Assembly (NCBI GenBank): GCA_902593475.1
Contig: CACJIM010000004.1
Span: 340 to 64,339 of the forward strand
Direction of reading: 5' to 3'
DNA: 64,000 nt
Source: an uncultured Candidatus Actinomarina sp.
GTDB lineage: Bacteria; Actinomycetota; Acidimicrobiia; Actinomarinales; Actinomarinaceae
Both the position numbers and the translations under genes were made by a program. Positions 49,866 to 60,225 of the stretch are shown one piece after another. Position 1 is the stretch's first letter. Every line of letters begins with the position of its first letter. The notes below the pieces were generated by a model. It worked only from the letters and a program-made list of their open reading frames with translations. It had not been told where the DNA came from and ran no database searches.

Positions 49866-50321
49866 GTGGTTAAAAAAACTTTACTTCTTTTTATATTCTT
49901 AATTTCTTGTACAGGTAGTGAATCTGCAATTGAGGAATCAAAATCTTTAAATTCTGAAGAAGTGCTTAATCAAATATTGGAAAGCTATAAAAACTTTTCA
50001 GACAACCCAGAAGAAGCTGTTGATCTAATTTGGGGCTTCGCACATGAAGATAATAAGGAAATCACGGGACCAAAAGAGAGGTTTGGTCAAATGTTGGTTA
50101 GCGAACCATACGACTCCATTATTGATCTTAAAGAGTACTCATATGAAGTAACGTATGAAAATGAAACAAATGTACATTATGAAGTTAAGGTACTTGCTAA
50201 AACTAATAATTATTTTGTAATTACATGGGTTTTTGAGAAAACGGATTGTCCGGAATTAGAACAGCAGTGTTGGCTAACAATTGCTGTGACTGCACCAGAA
50301 TATTTTCAATCAGGTATTTAA
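49866..50321 (+). CDS. Small lipoprotein of unknown function
   Basis: 151 aa with GTG start, signal peptide and lipobox FLISC. Confidence 0.6.
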   Translation: MVKKTLLLFIFLISCTGSESAIEESKSLNSEEVLNQILESYKNFSDNPEEAVDLIWGFAHEDNKEITGPKERFGQMLVSEPYDSIIDLKEYSYEVTYENETNVHYEVKVLAKTNNYFVITWVFEKTDCPELEQQCWLTIAVTAPEYFQSGI

Positions 50322-50839
50322 TCGTCTAAATTTTCTAAAGGATTTTCTGGCTGGCAAATTTCAAAAGCTTCTTGTACTGCCTCCGAGCTAAAATCTATAT
50401 CTGCATCTCTAAATGCAAAGAACCCAAACTCCCCGGGTTTTGGATCTGGAAAGTCAATTCCTTGGTCTCTCATACACTGCGAAAACTCTAAAGAAGCATC
50501 AACTAAAGCCGCTTCAACTTCTGGATCTAAATCAAATTGCTCTGGGAGAGCATTTCTCAAAATATCTTCACAATTTTCAAAAGCACTCTCAAACTCTTCT
50601 TCATTTTCAATTTCTAAATTATCGAACTGTGGATTTCCATCTATATCAAATTTTGGGTCAGGAAAATTAATACCTTCTTCTCGCATGCATTGAGCAAACT
50701 CGAGGACACCCTCTTCAAAAGTTGTCTCCTCATCAACAACTGTTGTAGCGGTGGTAGATTCAATAGTTACAACTCCTTGGGATTCTTCTCCGCCGATAGT
50801 GCATGCAGTAAATATAGCTACAAAGACTAGGATTTTTAT
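50318..50839 (-). CDS. Acidic two-module Cys-motif lipoprotein, paralogue P1 (start uncertain)
   Basis: Signal and lipobox read KIKILVFVAIFTAC. Two modules are present: EFAQCMREEGINFPDP...FENC and EFSQCMRDQGIDFPDP...FEIC. The only canonical start (ATG 50947) overlaps the permease gene by 112 nt. ATA 50839 and ATC 50833 are the only codons near the signal peptide. Confidence 0.6.
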   Translation of the reverse strand: MKILVFVAIFTACTIGGEESQGVVTIESTTATTVVDEETTFEEGVLEFAQCMREEGINFPDPKFDIDGNPQFDNLEIENEEEFESAFENCEDILRNALPEQFDLDPEVEAALVDASLEFSQCMRDQGIDFPDPKPGEFGFFAFRDADIDFSSEAVQEAFEICQPENPLENLDD

Positions 50840-52023
50840 TTTCGAACTGCCTCTGCTGGTTGAATTTTTGAAGCTTTTATAGCTGGATATACACCAGAAA
50901 TAGCTCCGATTAATAATGCTAAAAGTACTGCTCCAAATATTTGCCATACAGGTATTGAGAATACAATATTTGTGTAATTAGTATAACCCAGGGTAATAGC
51001 TGTTCCGAGAAGCACTCCAACTAAACCCCCTATTCCTGACAAAACAATACTTTCTAATAAAAATTGGTACCTAATTTCTCTTCTAGTAGCACCAATAGAT
51101 CTTCTAACTCCAATTTCCATTCTTCTCTCTAGCACAGACATCACCATGACATTTGCAATAGCGACACCACCAACAAGAAGTGCAACTGAACCAAGCCCTA
51201 AAAGTAGATTAGTAAATGCTTCTTCAGCTGCCTGTTGGGCTTCGAGTGCATCTGATGGACGGGTAACCTCAACTTGATCTGGGTTTTCAGGATTCATTGA
51301 GGGCGCCAGTACTTCGACAACGTCCTCGATAAATGTCGGGTTAGCTCGTAAATAAATTGTTGTTGGCTCTTCATCAATATCAAATAATGTTTTTGCTACA
51401 CCATATCCAATGAACACAGATCTGTCTAAGTCTGGATGAATTTTGAGCTCTTCTAGTATTCCAACTACACCAAACCATTCTTTTTCAATAAGTATCTTTG
51501 TGGGTGTTGATAAGTTGTTAATTCCTAATCGCTGTGCAGTTACGTTACCTAAGACTGTTACTGGAATATCAGAGAGCCCGTCCTCAATAAACCTACCATC
51601 AATTAAATTGCCTCCTATAACATCTAGCAGTTCAGCACTAGTAACAATTGTTGAAATACCACCGCCTTCAAATTCTGAAATAAAATTACTTCTCCTTACC
51701 AGAAGGTCTGTTTGGGTTGTAGAAGTAACTTCTTGAACTGGACCTATCCTTTCAACCATGCCTAAAACTCCTTTTGGGAGTTCTTCCTGGGTTCCAAAAA
51801 AACCAGCCTGGGGTGATGCTTTAACTAAGTTTGTACCTAAAGATTCTAGTGTTGAGAGAAGGTCTGCCCTTCCTGAAGCTGAAATTCCAGATACTGCAAC
51901 AATTGCAGCGATTCCAATACCAATACCAATTGAAGTAAGTGTTGCTCTACCTTTTCTTGCTCTAACACCGTATAAAGCTACAAAAAACAAGTCTTTGATT
52001 TTAAGTCTATTTCTTTTCATCAA
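50836..52023 (-). CDS. MacB/FtsX-type ABC transporter permease
   Basis: 395 aa. One N-terminal TM helix is followed by a large extracytoplasmic domain and three C-terminal TM helices (FtsX topology). Confidence 0.88.
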   Translation of the reverse strand: MMKRNRLKIKDLFFVALYGVRARKGRATLTSIGIGIGIAAIVAVSGISASGRADLLSTLESLGTNLVKASPQAGFFGTQEELPKGVLGMVERIGPVQEVTSTTQTDLLVRRSNFISEFEGGGISTIVTSAELLDVIGGNLIDGRFIEDGLSDIPVTVLGNVTAQRLGINNLSTPTKILIEKEWFGVVGILEELKIHPDLDRSVFIGYGVAKTLFDIDEEPTTIYLRANPTFIEDVVEVLAPSMNPENPDQVEVTRPSDALEAQQAAEEAFTNLLLGLGSVALLVGGVAIANVMVMSVLERRMEIGVRRSIGATRREIRYQFLLESIVLSGIGGLVGVLLGTAITLGYTNYTNIVFSIPVWQIFGAVLLALLIGAISGVYPAIKASKIQPAEAVRK

Positions 52024-52700
52024 TTCACTATTTTTCCATCAACTAGTTCTATAACTTTTTTGAACATACTTGCATGTTCCTGGTTGTGGGTAATCATTAT
52101 CACTGTTTTACCCTGATTGTTTAAGTCTTTCAGAATATTGAGTATGTTGATGCCGGATTCTTTATCTAAATTTCCTGTTGGTTCATCTGCTAGTACGAAT
52201 GCCGGATCTTGCACTAGAGCACGAGCAATTGCGACTCTCTGTTGTTGACCGCCGGACAATTCTTTGGGTAAATGGGTCAACCTGTCACCAAGGCCAACTT
52301 GTTCTAAAACTTCTTTCGCTTTTTCTAATCTCTCTGATCTTGAAATACCTTGGTATAAAAGACCTTCTGCAACATTTTCTTGAGCAGTTAATCCTGGAAG
52401 AAGGAAGAAGCTTTGAAATATGAATCCAATCTTTTCACCTCTAAACTTTGATAGCTCATTGTCTGAAAGTTCTGATACGTCTTTGCCCTCAATTTCTATA
52501 GAGCCATCGGTTATGCTGTCTAATAATCCAATCATATTTAAGAAAGTGGATTTACCACTTCCTGATTGACCGACTATTGAGACAAAATCTCCTTCTTTAA
52601 TTTCAAGTGAGACACCATCTAAAGCTCTTACTGGCGGAGGGCCTTCGTATACTTTGGAGATGTTATTTATAGAGATGACAGTTTTTGTACTGGTTTTCAT
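52020..52700 (-). CDS. ABC transporter ATP-binding protein (MacB/LolD-type)
   Basis: 226 aa with Walker A GQSGSGKST, signature LSGGQQQRVAIARAL and Walker B LADEPTGNLD. Confidence 0.93.
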   Translation of the reverse strand: MKTSTKTVISINNISKVYEGPPPVRALDGVSLEIKEGDFVSIVGQSGSGKSTFLNMIGLLDSITDGSIEIEGKDVSELSDNELSKFRGEKIGFIFQSFFLLPGLTAQENVAEGLLYQGISRSERLEKAKEVLEQVGLGDRLTHLPKELSGGQQQRVAIARALVQDPAFVLADEPTGNLDKESGINILNILKDLNNQGKTVIMITHNQEHASMFKKVIELVDGKIVN

Positions 52701-54283
52701 CTTGGTACAACTACTATTTGACCCTCTGAGATATTTCCTTTTACTTCCACAAAACCGTCAGTAAATACTCCTATTTCAACAGCAACGTAACTTGTGTCAA
52801 TGCCAGACTCTCCTTCAAATGTTCCAGTATCAAGCGCTCCGTCATAAACTTCTAAAGCATATCCTCCTTCTGCTAAAGCAAGGAGGGCGTTGACTGGAAC
52901 ATAAAGAACATTTTCAGAAATCTCTGTTGTAACAAATACTTTTACAGGAGCTTGGTCGTATGCTTCAATCTCTTCTGGGTTAAGAACTTCTAAAGTAACT
53001 TCTATAAATTCTCCAGCTTGAGTTTGTGTTACAACCTGGTCAATAAAGGTAATGACTGTTGGGACTCTTTCATCTGTAGGAAGTTCTATTTCAACACTAT
53101 CACCAAGTGAAACTGTTTCCTGGTCGGTAGCATCAACTTGAAAGACAACTTCAATTCCAATAGAAGAAATGTTGTACAGTGGTGAATTTAGTACAACAGC
53201 AGAACCAACGTCATTAACATAAGAGCCAACAATTATTGGTGTTTTAGATGCATACGCATTTGTTGGACTAAAAGTTTCTGACTTTGAGGCAAGCTCTAGC
53301 TCTTCAAGCTCTTCTTTGGCTTTTGCTAACTCAGCTACTTGATCAACACCTTCGTTATAGCTTTCTAGGGTATCGTCATATGCTTTTTGAGCTGTTTCAA
53401 TAGCCAAAGCTTCTGTTGCATCAATTCCTGACTCTTTGCCTTTTTCTAAATCTTTAATTCTTTTTTGTTTTTCAATTTCTTGCTCTAGGTCTTCAATTTC
53501 AGAGTCTCTGGTGCCATTTGCAATTTTGTCTTTTGTTTCAGGTATTGTATCGTCTTGAAGTAAGGTAATGCTTTGTTCAGCATTTTCAATAGCGGTGTCG
53601 GCTGCTTTCCAAGCTGCACTTTCTTCATTAGCAGCCTCTTTTGCATCATCTAGCTTTTTCTTTTTGTCGTTTACCTGTGCCAATGTGGTTCCGCCATCTG
53701 AAATTGTCTCTTCAATATTTTCGACTTCGGTCTTTTTTAAATTTATAGCAACCTGTTCTGCTGGTGTAATTTCAGATTTTGTATCAATTTTGTAATCAAC
53801 GTAAAGTGCATTAAGCATATTAGAAGTAGTCTCATCAAAGATTTCATCAGGTACAAAGTCTTCTGATGCGTAACCCAAGAACACAAGAGCTTCTTCAAGT
53901 TGTAAAACATCAGGACCAGCATCAGAGTTTAAATCTAAAGTTCTATAAAAGGGCGTCACTCCTTCAACTAAAATTACAGGTTTATTGTCCACGGCAAATA
54001 AGACTTCTCCAAAATTAATAATGGTTCCCTCTTTAGGAACAAAGGTAACAACCCCCGACATTGGTGAGTTGAGCACTTTACTGTCAGTCTGTCTTAAGGT
54101 TCCGTTATACTCTTCTTTCTTTGCTAAGTCACCTTTTTGTATAGCAACAGTGGTAAGTTCTAGGGTTTTGTTGTTTGTAGATGATTCTGTGTTCTGAGTA
54201 CCAAAATAATAACCACCATAACCTAGTGCAATGACTGCAATTAAAATGTACAGATTTTTTAATTTAAATATATTTTTCATCAT
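52697..54283 (-). CDS. Membrane-fusion (HlyD/MacA-like) adaptor with an inserted peptidoglycan-binding-like domain and a long coiled coil
   Basis: 528 aa with an N-terminal TM helix and a lipoyl-like hairpin (SPMSGVVTFVPKEG). A PG-binding-like segment follows (GPDVLQLEEALVFLGYASEDFVPDEIFDETT). Then comes an acidic coiled coil of roughly 170 aa and a C-terminal beta-barrel. Confidence 0.8.
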   Translation of the reverse strand: MMKNIFKLKNLYILIAVIALGYGGYYFGTQNTESSTNNKTLELTTVAIQKGDLAKKEEYNGTLRQTDSKVLNSPMSGVVTFVPKEGTIINFGEVLFAVDNKPVILVEGVTPFYRTLDLNSDAGPDVLQLEEALVFLGYASEDFVPDEIFDETTSNMLNALYVDYKIDTKSEITPAEQVAINLKKTEVENIEETISDGGTTLAQVNDKKKKLDDAKEAANEESAAWKAADTAIENAEQSITLLQDDTIPETKDKIANGTRDSEIEDLEQEIEKQKRIKDLEKGKESGIDATEALAIETAQKAYDDTLESYNEGVDQVAELAKAKEELEELELASKSETFSPTNAYASKTPIIVGSYVNDVGSAVVLNSPLYNISSIGIEVVFQVDATDQETVSLGDSVEIELPTDERVPTVITFIDQVVTQTQAGEFIEVTLEVLNPEEIEAYDQAPVKVFVTTEISENVLYVPVNALLALAEGGYALEVYDGALDTGTFEGESGIDTSYVAVEIGVFTDGFVEVKGNISEGQIVVVPR

Positions 54284-54346: not shown

Positions 54347-54946
54347 TTATGCATCCCACTCCTCATCTTTTAGCTCTTCTGGTAACTTATCTTCACATGC
54401 CTGCCATGTCTTAACTAAAGGATCGTCTTCTCTAAGCTCCCAGTCTTCATCAATATAAGCGTCTAATCTAACTTCTCTATTGAAATAATCTGGATCTGGT
54501 ACTTTTGGATATCCACTTTCTCTAAAACACTTCGCCATAAACAGTGATCTATCAATTTCTTTCGATACTTGTGCTGGATCTTCAAATTGATTTTCGTCTG
54601 CTACACCCCATAAATTATATTTCAAAGCGCATTCTTCGATTATATCCCATAGTTCCTCGGCCTCTTGTTCAGTTATTGTTTCAAAATATGAAGCAATTGT
54701 GGTGTAGAGATCTAAAAAGTTTTTTGGTTCTTTAAATTTATAACCAGATTCATTAACACACTGAACAAGTACTAAAGGTGCGTCCTCATCTGAGATTTCT
54801 TCTCGTTCATCTGTAAGCTGTACACCAGAAGCAATTGCCTCTTTACCTTTGTCAGTATCCGCAACAGAGACAACAGCTTGCTCATCTTGTTGAAAAAAAG
54901 AGCATGCTGTTAAAAAAATGAGTATTACTGAAGCTTTTTTATACAT
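54347..54946 (-). CDS. Acidic two-module Cys-motif lipoprotein, paralogue P2
   Basis: Start placed at MYKKASVILIFLTAC (ATG 54946); the track start at 55108 overlaps the upstream gene. Modules are VLVQCVNESGYKFKEP...IEECALKYNLW and MAKCFRESGYPKVPDP...WQAC. Confidence 0.7.
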   Translation of the reverse strand: MYKKASVILIFLTACSFFQQDEQAVVSVADTDKGKEAIASGVQLTDEREEISDEDAPLVLVQCVNESGYKFKEPKNFLDLYTTIASYFETITEQEAEELWDIIEECALKYNLWGVADENQFEDPAQVSKEIDRSLFMAKCFRESGYPKVPDPDYFNREVRLDAYIDEDWELREDDPLVKTWQACEDKLPEELKDEEWDA

Positions 54947-54971
54947 AGAAAAATTATAAAGTAACCTAGTC

Positions 54972-55562
54972 TTATCCTCCACCTTGTTGTGGTGGTTCAA
55001 GTCCAAGGTCGTCAAAACACTCCCCAGCTGCTTCCCTAACTTGATCTTCAAGATACTGTCCAGACTGCACAAGGCTAATAAGAATAGATCTAAGAGGTCT
55101 TTCAGCATTCGGATCTTCCACTTCTATCCCTTTTTCCCGTAAGCATTGTGCAAATTCCAACTCAGTGTCCAATGTATCAGCAACTTCTTCAGGATTCTCA
55201 AAGTCTGCTGTGCCACCAAGTGGAATATCGTTTTCGTCAGCACATGTTTGAATTGTCTCAAAAAGTTCTTCTCTACCTTTTTGATCAGAAGCTAAAAATA
55301 CTGGACGTAAAACACTCTGTAAACTCTCATCGTTTTTAGGATCTGAAACATCATATCCATTCTCTCTTAAGCACTTAGCTAGTAAAAGTTGTGCATCTTC
55401 TATTGAAACTACTTCTTCAGCAACTTCCTCTGCAATTGTTGTAACTGTTGTATCACTTGATAAATCTTTTGTAGAAACAACTCCTTGTGATTCATCTGAT
55501 GATGAACAAGCCGAGAAAAGAACAAATAGAAGTAATAAGAAGATATTTAAATATTTTTTCAT
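54972..55562 (-). CDS. Acidic two-module Cys-motif lipoprotein, paralogue P3
   Basis: 196 aa with signal and lipobox LFVLFSAC. Modules are LLAKCLRENGYDVSDP...IQTC and EFAQCLREKGIEVEDP...AGEC. Confidence 0.75.
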   Translation of the reverse strand: MKKYLNIFLLLLFVLFSACSSSDESQGVVSTKDLSSDTTVTTIAEEVAEEVVSIEDAQLLLAKCLRENGYDVSDPKNDESLQSVLRPVFLASDQKGREELFETIQTCADENDIPLGGTADFENPEEVADTLDTELEFAQCLREKGIEVEDPNAERPLRSILISLVQSGQYLEDQVREAAGECFDDLGLEPPQQGGG

Positions 55563-55566
55563 AATT

Positions 55567-56007
55567 TTAATTGTTTACCCTTATTGAAATAAAAAAGAAA
55601 ATTAAAGTCACTAAACCTATTAAAGGGGTAAGTGCTCCTGGAGGAGCTGAGTCAATGATTAAAGACTTGTATTGACCGATTCCTGCTCTGAGTATGTTTT
55701 CTAAAGCAATAATTAGCAACATAAGCGGAATAAGTTCTCTAATTTTTAAAACAATAAGAAGCAAAATGCAAGCCAAAACTAGCTGTGAAAAACCCCACTG
55801 AGCAAATATTGAAACAATGTTGTTTGCAGCTTCCGGTGAATAGCTGCTTAGTGGAATGCCTGCAATAGTTTCGGCTCCACCATCTTCAGCAAATATGTGT
55901 TCAAGGCTTCTAAATAAATTGAACCCAATTAGTAACCAACAATAGTAATAGACAATTTTGTTGCTTGGTATTTTGTTTTCAATTGTTTGGGGTATTAATT
56001 TTTTCAT
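55567..56007 (-). CDS. Small four-TM membrane protein of unknown function
   Basis: 146 aa with four hydrophobic helices. It lies between lipoprotein paralogues P4 and P3. Confidence 0.6.
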   Translation of the reverse strand: MKKLIPQTIENKIPSNKIVYYYCWLLIGFNLFRSLEHIFAEDGGAETIAGIPLSSYSPEAANNIVSIFAQWGFSQLVLACILLLIVLKIRELIPLMLLIIALENILRAGIGQYKSLIIDSAPPGALTPLIGLVTLIFFFISIRVNN

Positions 56008-56061
56008 AAGATGTTTCTATGTTTTTAATTTCTTTATTTTTTTATTATACAAATCTAATAC

Positions 56062-56553
56062 TTATTTTTGCCAACCACATTCTTGTAATAACGGCATAAC
56101 GTCATCTTTGGATTCCTTGAGCCCACTTAAATCAACCTTAGGTTCTTGTTGGTTTGGATCAGGAACATTTAACCCTTTTTCTCTTAGGCATTTAGCTAAT
56201 TCAAGATTTTCATCATAAATTTTGGCAAGCTCTTCAGGATTCAATGAAGATGTTTCTGACCAGAGATTATATTTACTTATGCAGTAATCGACATCTTCTC
56301 TTAGTTGCAGCTGTTCATCTTTGCTATTGCTTAACTGACTAATTGTTGTTTTTAAATCTTCAATATCAAACGGTGTTGCTATGTTATATCCCATTTCTTC
56401 GTTTAAGCATTGTGTTAAAACAATTGGATAGTCCTCTTCCGCTATAACCGAAGTGGTGGTTGTGTCATTTGATAAAGAGGCTACTCCGTCATCGTTAGAA
56501 GTTGAACATAAATTAAAGAGAAGAGTAAAAATTATTAAATATATTTTTTTCAA
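56062..56553 (-). CDS. Acidic two-module Cys-motif lipoprotein, paralogue P4
   Basis: Start placed at TTG 56553, 9 nt after GAGGAA, giving MKKIYLIIFTLLFNLC. Modules are VLTQCLNEEMGYNIATP...DYCISKYNLW and ELAKCLREKGLNVPDP...LQEC. The track start at 56637 overlaps the upstream gene. Confidence 0.7.
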   Translation of the reverse strand: MKKIYLIIFTLLFNLCSTSNDDGVASLSNDTTTTSVIAEEDYPIVLTQCLNEEMGYNIATPFDIEDLKTTISQLSNSKDEQLQLREDVDYCISKYNLWSETSSLNPEELAKIYDENLELAKCLREKGLNVPDPNQQEPKVDLSGLKESKDDVMPLLQECGWQK

Positions 56554-56555
56554 TT

Positions 56556-57647
56556 TTATTTGTTCCTCAAACCAAACAAAGGCCTTAATGACTTGATGTT
56601 TTTTATGGCGTGATAAATCGTTAAAGAAAAAAAGCAAATCAAGAACAGAGCAATTGGGAATTTAATGATTGGATGGATATTTATACCAGCAAAAAAATAC
56701 ATTACTGCCATTTGTACTGGTAAGTGAACGATGTAAACAGGATATACAGCTGTTTTGTAATAGGTAAGCTGTGGTGAGTCTTTGTTTAAATACACTGCAG
56801 CAAGGCCTAACAGCGCAAAAATAAAATTAAAGGATTCAAAAGCTATGAGCCTATTGTCCAAGGCATAGTCTTCTATAAAATTGTTAAAAAGTCTATAAAA
56901 ATATGATGTCATACCTAAAGCTAGGTGTAATCGCCAGTTCTTTTTATTTGATTCCCAAAAGGCATCACCTTGAGAAGTAAGAATTATACCTATAGCAAAC
57001 CATATGAGGCCAAGAATAAAACCATGCTCCGTAAGAGCGTAAGTAGTGTAATAATCTCCGTATGTTTCTGTTTTAAACCTAATTGAATTAAGCAGATGTC
57101 CCTCAGCTATTATGGGTATTGCAAATATAAATATTCCTCCCGGTCTTTTGAGCAATAAAGAAATAAAATTTTCTTTTGATATAAAATTCAAAATCGGAAC
57201 AAAAAGCCAACAGTAGATAAAAATATTTATTAAAAACCACAAGTGTAATCCCTGATATTGGAAGGAAAATAAGGCTGCTTCATTTATCTCATCTAAGAAC
57301 CAGTAATCATAATATTTGCCCACAATAAAAACCGAGGAAGTTGAAAATACAAGAGTTCCAAACAACCACGGAAGGCCAAGAACTTTTGCTCTCTCTTTAA
57401 ATATTTGCATCTTAGTTCTTTTTCTAAATGAAAGTCTTAAAGCAACCCCCGCAATCAAGAAAACAAGCGGGATTCTCCAGCTATTCATAAGGTTTAGTAG
57501 TGGCCATATACCCTCTACTACTCTTTTGTTCTGAATGAAAAGGGTTTGTCTAGCAAGAGACGTGAATGAGACACCAAGATGATAAAAAATAAGAAGAAAC
57601 ATTGCTATAGATCGCAACGCGTCAATATCATATCTTCTTTGATTCAT
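56556..57647 (-). CDS. Acyltransferase family 3 (OafA/OpgC-like) membrane protein
   Basis: 363 aa with about 10 TM helices. The N-terminal YDIDALRSIAMFLLIFYHL motif is typical of acyltransferase_3. Confidence 0.8.
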   Translation of the reverse strand: MNQRRYDIDALRSIAMFLLIFYHLGVSFTSLARQTLFIQNKRVVEGIWPLLNLMNSWRIPLVFLIAGVALRLSFRKRTKMQIFKERAKVLGLPWLFGTLVFSTSSVFIVGKYYDYWFLDEINEAALFSFQYQGLHLWFLINIFIYCWLFVPILNFISKENFISLLLKRPGGIFIFAIPIIAEGHLLNSIRFKTETYGDYYTTYALTEHGFILGLIWFAIGIILTSQGDAFWESNKKNWRLHLALGMTSYFYRLFNNFIEDYALDNRLIAFESFNFIFALLGLAAVYLNKDSPQLTYYKTAVYPVYIVHLPVQMAVMYFFAGINIHPIIKFPIALFLICFFSLTIYHAIKNIKSLRPLFGLRNK

Positions 57648-57675
57648 ATGAATAATGTTAGTGCGTACGTTTTGA

Positions 57676-58110: not shown

Positions 58111-59313
58111 CTAGACAAATATTTGTGTTTTAGGTTCTATTCCACCAGTTAGTGGCATAGCGTATTCAAAGAATTCATTGGTAACATATGGTTTACTTTC
58201 ATTTAAAAATTCTTGTGGCATGTCTTTTGTGTGCTTAGCAACTTTCTTAAGCTCTACAACATCAACATCGCAACTATATGTTTCTGACAATTGTCTTTTA
58301 AGAATTACGGAACCGCTTTGAATTTCTTTTGACGCAACAACAGCATGTTGACCAACTCTCTCTGCTTCTTCTGCGTCTACCTCGGAGACGTCGGCTAGGA
58401 AAGACCTTTGCAAGTATCCAAATGTATCAGCTCTAACTCTTGCTCCGTCAATGTGTTCTGAAACAATATTTGTTAGCGTATCACCCAATGCCCCTGAGCC
58501 TGATAGTTGAATGTTTCCATGACTATCTTTTTTTCCAGCTAGGCCAGATCCTGTTTCGCTTGCATATGTTTGTAAAAAGTATTCTCCTTCTTCGTTATGA
58601 ATACCTTCCGAGACAGCAACTACACATCTTCCAAGTGAATCATAAACCTCTTTGACTTCCTTTAAAAATTCATCAATTTTGAATACTTTTTCAGGAACAT
58701 ATACTAAATGCGGTCCATCTTCTTCAGTAGATTTTCCTAAGGTGCTCGCAGCGGTAAGCCACCCAGCATGTCTTCCCATTAAAACATTTATCTTGATTCC
58801 TTTTAGACTTCTATTATCCGCATCATCTCCTTGAAAGGCGTGAGCCACAAAACGAGCAGCTGAACCATAACCTGGACAGTGGTCTGTTTCAAGTAGATCG
58901 TTATCAATAGTTTTTGGTATATGAAATGCTTTCATGTCATATCCGATAGATTTTGCTCCTTCAGAAACTAAGTTTGCTGTTTCAGCAGAATCGTTACCTC
59001 CTATATAAAAGAAGTTTCTAATATTTTGTTTTTCAAATATTGATACAAGCTGTTCTATGTCAGAGTCTGTTGGTTTTTTTCTTACTGAACCAAGCGCTGC
59101 AGCAGGCGTTTTACCAATTCCATAAAGCTGGGCTTCCGATAAGTTTGATAAATCAACAAAATCTTCATTGAGCATGCCCGCTAACCCATGTCTTGCACCA
59201 AGAATCTCATCGAAATCTGATTTAGTAGCCTCCTTAATAAACCCAACTAGTGATTTATTTATAACAGCTGTCGGACCTCCCGACTGTCCAATTACTGCTT
59301 TGCCTTGTGGCAT
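58111..59313 (-). CDS. pfp: 6-phosphofructokinase, PfkA family, with PPi-type specificity residues
   Basis: 400 aa with N-terminal GQSGGPTAVIN. It has GGNDS where ATP enzymes have GGDGS, and PKTIDND where they have PGTIDND. Confidence 0.8.
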   Translation of the reverse strand: MPQGKAVIGQSGGPTAVINKSLVGFIKEATKSDFDEILGARHGLAGMLNEDFVDLSNLSEAQLYGIGKTPAAALGSVRKKPTDSDIEQLVSIFEKQNIRNFFYIGGNDSAETANLVSEGAKSIGYDMKAFHIPKTIDNDLLETDHCPGYGSAARFVAHAFQGDDADNRSLKGIKINVLMGRHAGWLTAASTLGKSTEEDGPHLVYVPEKVFKIDEFLKEVKEVYDSLGRCVVAVSEGIHNEEGEYFLQTYASETGSGLAGKKDSHGNIQLSGSGALGDTLTNIVSEHIDGARVRADTFGYLQRSFLADVSEVDAEEAERVGQHAVVASKEIQSGSVILKRQLSETYSCDVDVVELKKVAKHTKDMPQEFLNESKPYVTNEFFEYAMPLTGGIEPKTQIFV

Positions 59314-59316
59314 TTT

Positions 59317-60225
59317 TTAACTCCCGTTTTGATATACAGATATAAAACTTAGATAAGAGTTTGCTATTTCTGAAACAGCCTCTTCTCGTGATTTCTCACC
59401 AGCATGCCATCCTTTAAGAGAATCCCAAAAGATAGATCTTCCAATAGCAAAACCTTTGTAGCCGTCAACTGATGATCCCGCTCTTAACCATTCATTCACT
59501 TTTTCATCATTGGCTCCTCTACCAAGAACGACTGCTATTACATCTTCTCTGCCTCCATCTTTGATTACCTTGGAAACATTTTCACAGTCATCAGTGGTGT
59601 CTAGTCCTTCAATCTTCCAAATATCTGGATCAGCTCCTCGCTCTCTCATTTCTTCAACTACCTGAACAGCAAGTTTTGGTCTAATTTCTGAATCATATCG
59701 AGCTTGATCACCGCCAACACTTTCTAACTGTTGTTCTGATGCAGGAACTAAAAATTCTAAAAGAAATTTTCTTTCGTTTTCATTAAGCCAATCAGACAGT
59801 GTTTTAATTCTTTCACCCTGAATTTGTCTTGTGTCTGCATCATCTTCAGGGTTCCAACGAACTAAAATTTTTACAAAGTCTGCATTGACCTCTTTTATTT
59901 TCTCACCAAAGTTATCACCGTATTCGAAGTCGAATACTTTTTGTCCAGACTTTTCTACAGGAGCAGCAAATTTAATTCCCATTTCTTTTGCTTTTTCTTG
60001 TACTTGTAATCCAAAAGCTTCATCAACTAATATTGCCGGATCTCCACCCTCGATGCCTTGATTTTTTGCCTCAAGAAAGCCATCAAAAATAATATCTTTC
60101 ATGGAGGATACTCTTGCAATCTCGTCACTATTAGGTGGTCTTCCCTCAACACCCAAAAGCCCTTTGGTTAAGGTACCTCTGTGGTCAAATGCAAGAATGT
60201 ATAAATCGCTTGAGTATCCTTTCAT
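59317..60225 (-). CDS. Class I aldolase-like (beta/alpha)8 protein (LacD/DUF2090-like)
   Basis: 302 aa. The N-terminal LAFDHRGT resembles the LacD/YihT LALDQRGS motif, and the length fits a TIM barrel. Assignment is by motif memory only. Confidence 0.5.
   Translation of the reverse strand: MKGYSSDLYILAFDHRGTLTKGLLGVEGRPPNSDEIARVSSMKDIIFDGFLEAKNQGIEGGDPAILVDEAFGLQVQEKAKEMGIKFAAPVEKSGQKVFDFEYGDNFGEKIKEVNADFVKILVRWNPEDDADTRQIQGERIKTLSDWLNENERKFLLEFLVPASEQQLESVGGDQARYDSEIRPKLAVQVVEEMRERGADPDIWKIEGLDTTDDCENVSKVIKDGGREDVIAVVLGRGANDEKVNEWLRAGSSVDGYKGFAIGRSIFWDSLKGWHAGEKSREEAVSEIANSYLSFISVYQNGS

Follow-up and report, generated by a model that had tools for sequence, protein, structure and literature searches.

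Two-module cysteine lipoproteins encoded with an adaptor–MacB pump cassette in Candidatus Actinomarina and other Actinomycetota

Four lipoprotein genes beside pump genes

The window analysed here is a 64,000-nucleotide stretch of an uncultured Candidatus Actinomarina sp. (assembly GCA_902593475.1, contig CACJIM010000004.1, positions 340 to 64,339) with a G+C content of 33%. On its minus strand lie four open reading frames (ORFs), P1–P4, that encode small acidic lipoproteins made of two cysteine-bearing modules. We use the working name CysLP for the unnamed lipoprotein family to which they belong. The CysLP gene is a fixed component of a cassette in which it is followed by genes for a peptidoglycan (PG)-binding adaptor, an ABC ATPase and a MacB permease, and in the genus of the window it is expanded to four copies. 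The window has this adjacency: an acyltransferase_3 gene is followed by P4, a gene for a 146-aa protein, P3, P2, the adaptor, the ATPase, the permease and P1, with gaps of 0–63 nt.

The four ORFs and many of their features had been recognised in a preliminary description made from the letters of the sequence, which is correct about their presence and coordinates. The span to which it assigned the family (54347–56553) takes in P2–P4, as it should, but it also includes the unrelated 146-aa gene and omits P1. Its picture of the single proteins stands, with corrections for the lipobox of P4 and the start of P1. Each has a signal peptide and a lipobox Cys (FTAC in P1, LTAC in P2, FSAC in P3 and the atypical FNLC in P4, with Leu at position –1), and each carries exactly five Cys, one lipobox-like and four in the mature part. 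Isoelectric points (pI) of the mature proteins are 4.05–4.09, in keeping with the acidic background that was claimed, and every motif string quoted is found in P1–P4. The two internal modules are also real: the eight half-proteins align as one module of ~55 residues, in which C11, G16, P22 and C54 are invariant, and P1–P4 can be aligned along their entire length. Module 1 of P2 is diverged (CVNE, KEP), and the loop of module 1 is degenerate in both P2 and P4. With a profile made from the eight window modules, the modules themselves score 1.9e-19 to 8.1e-26, and no further ones were found in the genome bin of the window (0.84 Mb, 60% complete; the genomes of congeners are 1.0–1.1 Mb).

It is more difficult to say where translation of P1 begins. 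The gene has no ATG, GTG or TTG at its signal peptide, and the codon homologous to the start is ATA in the window. In the congeners G005 and G141 the start is apparently GTG, and in G089 an ATG stands just before the signal peptide. The only in-frame ATG available to P1 lies 108 nt upstream, within the permease gene (region 50831–50947). A scan for promoters and terminators gave no more sites than shuffled sequence.

Table 1. Genes of the CysLP locus in the window, with module coordinates and the basis of assignment
Feature	Position	Strand	Details
P1, two-module Cys lipoprotein after the permease gene	50318..50839	-	modules 50555-50719, 50339-50506
MacB-type ABC permease, MacB_PCD + FtsX domains	50836..52023	-	Pfam FtsX 2.2e-21, MacB_PCD 1.9e-14; best NCBIfam MacB
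ABC ATPase, MacB/LolD/FtsE type	52020..52700	-	Pfam ABC_tran 2.9e-35; best NCBIfam DarD, MacB, LolD
Periplasmic adaptor, 528 aa, MacA/AcrA fold + peptidoglycan-binding-like domain	52697..54283	-	homology, AlphaFold2, Foldseek
P2, two-module Cys lipoprotein directly upstream of the adaptor	54347..54946	-	modules 54614-54790, 54380-54559
P3, two-module Cys lipoprotein	54972..55562	-	modules 55227-55403, 55002-55175
146-aa protein, four hydrophobic segments	55567..56007	-	without family match (Pfam, NCBIfam)
P4, two-module Cys lipoprotein, TTG start, lipobox FNLC	56062..56553	-	modules 56266-56439, 56065-56220

A large family without a name

P1–P4 are members of a large family of lipoproteins, so far unnamed and presumably tethered to the membrane. 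Scored against 1.84 billion protein representatives, the module profile matched 3041 cluster representatives at E ≤ 1e-3, of which 576 also pass E ≤ 1e-10; the best E is 2.6e-39, so the resemblance among the eight modules is far beyond chance. Nearly all of the 3041 matches are 170–230 aa long and contain two matched stretches. Close relatives of P3 are common in marine metagenomes (2160 were found), and one source labels its copy as Acidimicrobiaceae. The likeness to uncharacterised actinobacterial secreted proteins, pointed out in the preliminary description, is real.

Conservation of the four mature cysteines was assessed in 336 two-module sequences collected from the representatives, database homologues and genome loci; all four are kept in 326, the exceptions look truncated or frame-shifted, and the median Cys spacings are 42 and 43 residues. 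The loss of these residues in orthologues had been named beforehand as an observation that would speak against the family, and it is not what we see. Each module contains one loop of the form C-[ML]-R-[DE]-x-G-x-x-x-P-D-P. Members from high-GC genomes have a lipobox, the string VASL, and then twice the arrangement A-L-E-F-A-Q-C-M-R-E-H-G-V-D-M-P-D-P ... A-x-E-A-C. A lipobox is present in 231 of 250 family members. The mature part has a median net charge of –28 and a median pI of 4.05, with 93% of members below pI 5, while only 2.8% of long ORFs in the genome of the window have a pI below 4.2; an exception to this acidity are two CysLP proteins of Streptomyces plasmids, which read as lysine-rich by sequence (pI not computed). 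A further feature, absent from the preliminary description, is a G-V-A-S-L-like tether motif 8–12 residues past the lipid Cys, seen in 161 of 235 proteins versus 4 of 250 in a control segment; in the window copies it reads GVVTI, AVVSV, GVVST and GVASL.

No characterised domain was matched by the family in profile searches of Pfam, NCBIfam and PDB or in Foldseek comparison of a structure model. Pfam and NCBIfam gave nothing significant, whether searched with the window copies, ten high-GC members or 47 aligned ones, the only recurring sub-threshold matches being fragments of Cx9C/CHCH/COX17 and PBP_GOBP, and the PDB sequence profile search returned nothing beyond a chance match at E 0.5. Members are called 'hypothetical protein' in the databases, RefSeq included, and literature searches on the motif strings and on the operon in Actinobacteria found no paper on the family. 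Kinship with Cx9C/CHCH/COX17 was rejected, as these matches reach 14–16 bits against cut-offs of 25–27, cover 10–17 residues and imply a Cys spacing of 9 instead of ~42. The same holds for DUF732 (PF05305), a candidate that arose from a viral match at E = 2 and a motif. These small mycobacterial secreted proteins and lipoproteins are, like CysLP, actinobacterial and exported, with a conserved Cys pair and a local helix-G-[IV]-x-x-x-D-P motif, but their first Cys lies in a different helix (the conserved Cys are in helix 2 and at the C-terminus). There was no hmmscan match, hhalign with a DUF732 alignment built from genomes gave 6.9% probability over 18 columns, and DUF732 was found in one family only, f82. 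An apparent fusion of CysLP to the adaptor (P0225, and the related ORF L079) looks like a frame-shifted or read-through gene call.

The AlphaFold2 model of P3, made from a 49-sequence alignment, has a mean predicted local distance difference test (pLDDT) score of 79. Its first 50 residues are disordered, and its core (residues 54–186) has means over 10-residue blocks of mostly 85–98, with a dip at the linker between the modules. The core is modelled as six helices, three per module. In both modules the first Cys sits 3–4 residues short of the end of helix 1 and the second just as far short of the end of helix 3: C64 in helix 54–67, C107 in helix 94–110, C140 in helix 124–143 and C182 in helix 172–186. 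Because an assumed up-down-up topology brings the Cys pair of each module close together, each module probably forms one internal disulfide, C1–C2 and C3–C4. A mature CysLP would then consist of a flexible tether of ~35–45 residues with the G-V-A-S-L-like motif, followed by two three-helix modules. Foldseek comparison of the P3 model with the PDB and viral libraries returned nothing below E 0.5. The oxidative-folding set of the genus, with a DsbB-family gene in the three better-assembled genomes and no match to VKOR, DSBA or Thioredoxin_4, is unusual for an actinobacterium.

The cassette across genomes and the history of the copies

A survey of genomic neighbours, proposed in the preliminary description, places the CysLP gene next to an adaptor–MacB cassette in the named loci. 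In three database contigs carrying Pfam labels, CysLP comes after a response regulator and histidine kinase (RR/HK) pair and is followed by genes for a PG_binding_1 protein, ABC_tran and MacB_PCD/FtsX. An overlap of 1–4 nt between the stop of CysLP and the start of the adaptor, present in all three, suggests translational coupling. Among the 80 named loci, those whose flanks reach far enough have CysLP, adaptor, ATPase and permease with RR/HK beside them, most in the exact canonical order and a few scrambled by overlapping ORF calls. This two-component system (TCS) is either divergent from or co-directional with the cassette, and usually divergent from the CysLP gene. Carriers of these loci are Acidimicrobiia, Solirubrobacterales and other Thermoleophilia, Frankiaceae, Micrococcales, Nitriliruptorales and some Chloroflexota, as well as the genera Amycolatopsis, Saccharothrix, Nonomuraea, Microtetraspora, Microbispora and Longispora. 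The same cassette is found next to RR and HK genes on two linear plasmids of Streptomyces that RefSeq has annotated, with the labels 'hypothetical protein / peptidoglycan-binding protein / ABC transporter ATP-binding protein / ABC transporter permease'. On the plasmid of Streptomyces sp. NBC_00376 (L145 244–10758) the cassette lies beside a second TCS annotated cseB, a D-alanyl-D-alanine carboxypeptidase gene and a transposase gene, a neighbourhood that hints at a mobile cell-wall-stress context.

Co-occurrence was counted in a sample of 401 Actinomycetota genomes. CysLP was present in 45, the adaptor in 50 and both in 38. As the genomes are mutually related and no more than a few candidates were scored in each, these counts are descriptive. 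Wherever the adaptor matched at E ≤ 1e-55 in this sample, CysLP accompanied it, and the two were adjacent in every case compared. The genomes with the adaptor only gave weak matches, which are probably paralogues.

Over its length the 528-aa protein of the window shares ~30% identity with the 'peptidoglycan-binding proteins' of canonical operons. The Pfam HlyD models gave no match on it, and its assignment as a periplasmic adaptor with a long coiled-coil hairpin in this genus follows from structure comparison. Its AlphaFold2 model (pLDDT 77) has beta-rich lipoyl and barrel domains, a small helical domain and long helices at 201–242 and 263–336, and matched AcrA, MacA, MexA, CusB and EmrA in Foldseek, down to E 7.6e-15 for AcrA and about 1e-13 for the MacA entries 9qgy_G, 4dk0 and 5nik_D. 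An insertion of ~170 residues (about 175–345) follows the peptidoglycan-binding-like domain, is coiled-coil in character and is absent from all 34 aligned high-GC homologues. It looks like an alpha-hairpin, gained or retained, as in MacA. The regulator and the kinase of the cassette, a HAMP histidine kinase, fall in the OmpR/EnvZ class; in NCBIfam they match heavy-metal sensor families best, below cut-offs, and the sensor loop of the kinase contains no conserved His, Met or Cys.

Module matches were found in 59 of the 63 other species of the genus, mostly eight per species. We compared the window region 56553–57650 with L116 4085–6024, L117 1996–3772 and L118 4857–6802. The congeners G005, G141 and G089 have a histidine kinase and an OmpR-type regulator inside the locus; the window locus has lost both, and no orthologous kinase was found in the 60%-complete genome bin. 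G089 keeps the canonical arrangement, with a copy of P1 added behind the permease. Across the genus the locus varies, and additional genes for secreted proteins have been inserted into it. Beside the regulator in two congeners (L118 7130–7795 and L117 4242–4859) lies a gene for a secreted acidic protein with a long internal repeat (…HEAMHEAKSTILEDGQITQEEIDALEDS…) and a His/Lys/Gly-rich tail; no family matches this protein, and the window lacks it. The 146-aa gene is kept in the same locus of G005 and G141; it is context, outside the canonical cassette.

In a maximum-likelihood tree P2 and P4 are sisters (support 98/86), as was noticed from their motifs beforehand, and P3, P2 and P4 form one clade (100/99). 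P1 and P3, which had been grouped together as well, are not a clade: P1 goes with the canonical high-GC family and is the paralogue nearest to it. The old duplication of a pair that had been suggested for the four genes is refuted by this topology, and because the tree separates P1 from P3, the motifs these two share are retained ancestral ones. It should be noted that the tree is rooted at midpoint and that composition differs between the groups, so that the deep order is tentative. The ratio of nonsynonymous to synonymous substitution rates (dN/dS) against congeners is 0.03–0.26 for the four CysLP genes (P1 0.06–0.12, P2 0.03, P4 0.22) and 0.00–0.23 for the pump genes, the latter falling to 0.00–0.09 against two closer congeners. 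All four copies are real genes under purifying selection.

A few kb away from its cassette the window (58111–60225) has genes for a phosphofructokinase and a class-I aldolase-like protein, and the same pair is found near the cassette of a distant high-GC relative, GCA_963853535.1 (L033 14006–16105).

A possible role beside the pump

We give about an even chance (roughly 0.5) to the interpretation that CysLP is an extracytoplasmic accessory subunit of the adaptor–MacB pump. The protein is tied to the pump by a nearly obligate adjacency, by the overlaps of stop and start codons and by co-occurrence, and because four copies persist where the TCS is missing at the locus, the tie is with the pump rather than with signalling. 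CysLP would be held by its lipid beside a wall-anchored MacB pump, and might dock to the adaptor or to the periplasmic domain of MacB via the twice-repeated C-M-R-x-x-G-x-x-x-P-D-P loop, the tether motif or both. Once docked, it could either capture a substrate and hand it over, or control assembly of the adaptor. What we show is a family with conserved Cys, a modelled helical fold, the gene context and co-occurrence, and purifying selection; that the proteins are lipidated, form disulfides, touch the pump or act on a substrate is inferred. MacB pumps act on extracytoplasmic substrates, and the adaptors of Gram-positive bacteria are thought to form channels through the wall zone (PMC5985334).

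Several observations weigh against this assignment. The genome bin is 60% complete, so the TCS may lie elsewhere in the genome. P3 and P4 evolve fastest, outpacing the pump genes in dN/dS, and four fast-diverging copies, together with the tandem copies of other genomes, are unusual for a stoichiometric subunit; multiple diverging copies would suit cargo or a set of substrate binders. As to the predicted disulfides, a DsbB-family gene is present in all three congeners examined, but none of the Pfam families VKOR, DSBA and Thioredoxin_4 was found in four genomes of the genus (G000, G005, G057 and G089).

Fourth components are known from Gram-positive adaptor–MacB pumps, namely the enigmatic YknW of Bacillus YknWXYZ and AS-48E of Enterococcus (PMC5985334, PMC4887032). 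Like CysLP, they are extra membrane-associated proteins of bacteria that lack an outer membrane, their genes share an operon with those for an adaptor, an ABC ATPase and a MacB permease, and their role is likewise enigmatic. They are, however, integral membrane proteins with four transmembrane segments, whereas CysLP is modelled as a soluble helical domain on a lipid tether, and the cassette described here, unlike their operons, includes a PG_binding_1 adaptor and a TCS. No relation of CysLP to YknW or AS-48E was found in sequence or fold. The 146-aa protein encoded between P3 and P4 has four hydrophobic segments too; this resemblance to YknW and AS-48E is one of segment count only.

Another parallel is YbjP, a small lipoprotein recently found bound to TolC in MacAB-TolC and AcrABZ-TolC (PDB 9qgy, 9tg4; PMC13082787) and now known as a structural partner of tripartite pumps, MacAB among them. 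In a diderm host YbjP attaches to TolC, the outer-membrane duct, and the gene for YbjP is not with those of the pump, whereas the CysLP gene sits in the pump cassette. Foldseek of the CysLP model against the PDB library, in which 9qgy and 9tg4 are included, gave no match better than E 0.5.

A narrower form of the accessory-subunit interpretation, which we regard as possible though doubtful, would make CysLP a dedicated substrate-capture protein for an exporter, taking an envelope-acting compound from the membrane surface and feeding it to a MacB pump that its PG-binding adaptor anchors in the wall. The functional model is CusF, a small extracytoplasmic protein of a pump operon with a TCS beside it (E. 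coli cusRS/cusCFBA), which hands its substrate to the adaptor. CusF is a beta-barrel with conserved Met/His ligands that serves a resistance-nodulation-division (RND) pump, while CysLP is all-helical in the model, has no invariant metal ligands and goes with MacB. The parallel could be taken literally, with CysLP as a CusF-like buffer or chaperone for metals or other cations in a cusRS/cusCFBA-like locus. The median net charge, the Met- and His-rich high-GC loop C-M-R-E-H-G-V-D-M-P-D-P and the similar gene layout would be expected of such a protein, and the best TCS matches are to heavy-metal sensors, though below cut-offs. We find this quite improbable: these TCS matches are generic to the OmpR/EnvZ class and the kinase sensor loop lacks conserved metal ligands, P2–P4 replace the Met and His of the loop, the Cys are probably oxidised, and two Streptomyces plasmid members read as lysine-rich. 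A metal site, which the preliminary description offered as an alternative to two disulfides, is likewise without support, since no Met or His is invariant.

It is also conceivable, though unlikely in our view, that CysLP is what the pump moves, a cargo that the MacB machine either extracts from the membrane as LolCDE does or expels as a folded, disulfide-bonded protein to the wall or medium. Known analogues are the export of enterotoxin STII by MacAB and of lipidated dispersin by Aat. Dedicated exporters are often encoded beside their cargo, copy number is multiple and variable (four in the window, three in tandem in G158), and the dN/dS excess of P3 and P4 over the pump genes would be natural for a cargo. 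Acidimicrobiia are taken as monoderm; if so, an extracted lipoprotein would find no second membrane to enter. At least one member (P0138) apparently has a transmembrane anchor in place of the lipobox, and a surface loop that is invariant and repeated twice has more the look of a docking element. MacB-family pumps are known to handle small proteins with disulfides or lipids, and LolCDE to handle lipoproteins, but the folded core of ~130 residues exceeds the upper size of ~10 kDa suggested for folded MacB substrates (PMC5985334).

The RR/HK pair beside the gene in nearly all of the 80 loci raises the question whether CysLP could be a co-sensor or modulator of the adjacent TCS. Accessory lipoproteins are a known theme in actinobacterial two-component systems, CseA and LpqB being examples. 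The CysLP gene is nevertheless co-directional with the pump, overlaps the adaptor gene and is usually divergent from the TCS genes, and the window locus has no TCS at all, yet keeps four copies under purifying selection. The odds of a signalling role appear to us decidedly poor.

Returning to CysLP as an accessory subunit, an inducible detoxification or resistance cassette would fit the patchy distribution, the multiple copies, the plasmid location and the control by a TCS. If substrate capture is the way it works, having paralogues such as P1–P4 would let the pump accept a wider range of substrates, much as an importer does with several binding proteins. Export would then depend on a binding protein, a principle that has not been described for MacB pumps. 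The purpose of the adaptor in bacteria without an outer membrane is an open question (PMC5985334). The cassette is widespread in Actinomycetota (~10% of sampled high-quality genomes), reaches some Chloroflexota and is present on Streptomyces linear plasmids, and it carries an obligate fourth gene that no database names, so that researchers of efflux and of the cell envelope gain a concrete component to study. That an abundant, streamlined marine actinobacterium (~1 Mb, 33% GC) keeps four highly conserved copies argues that the gene matters there.

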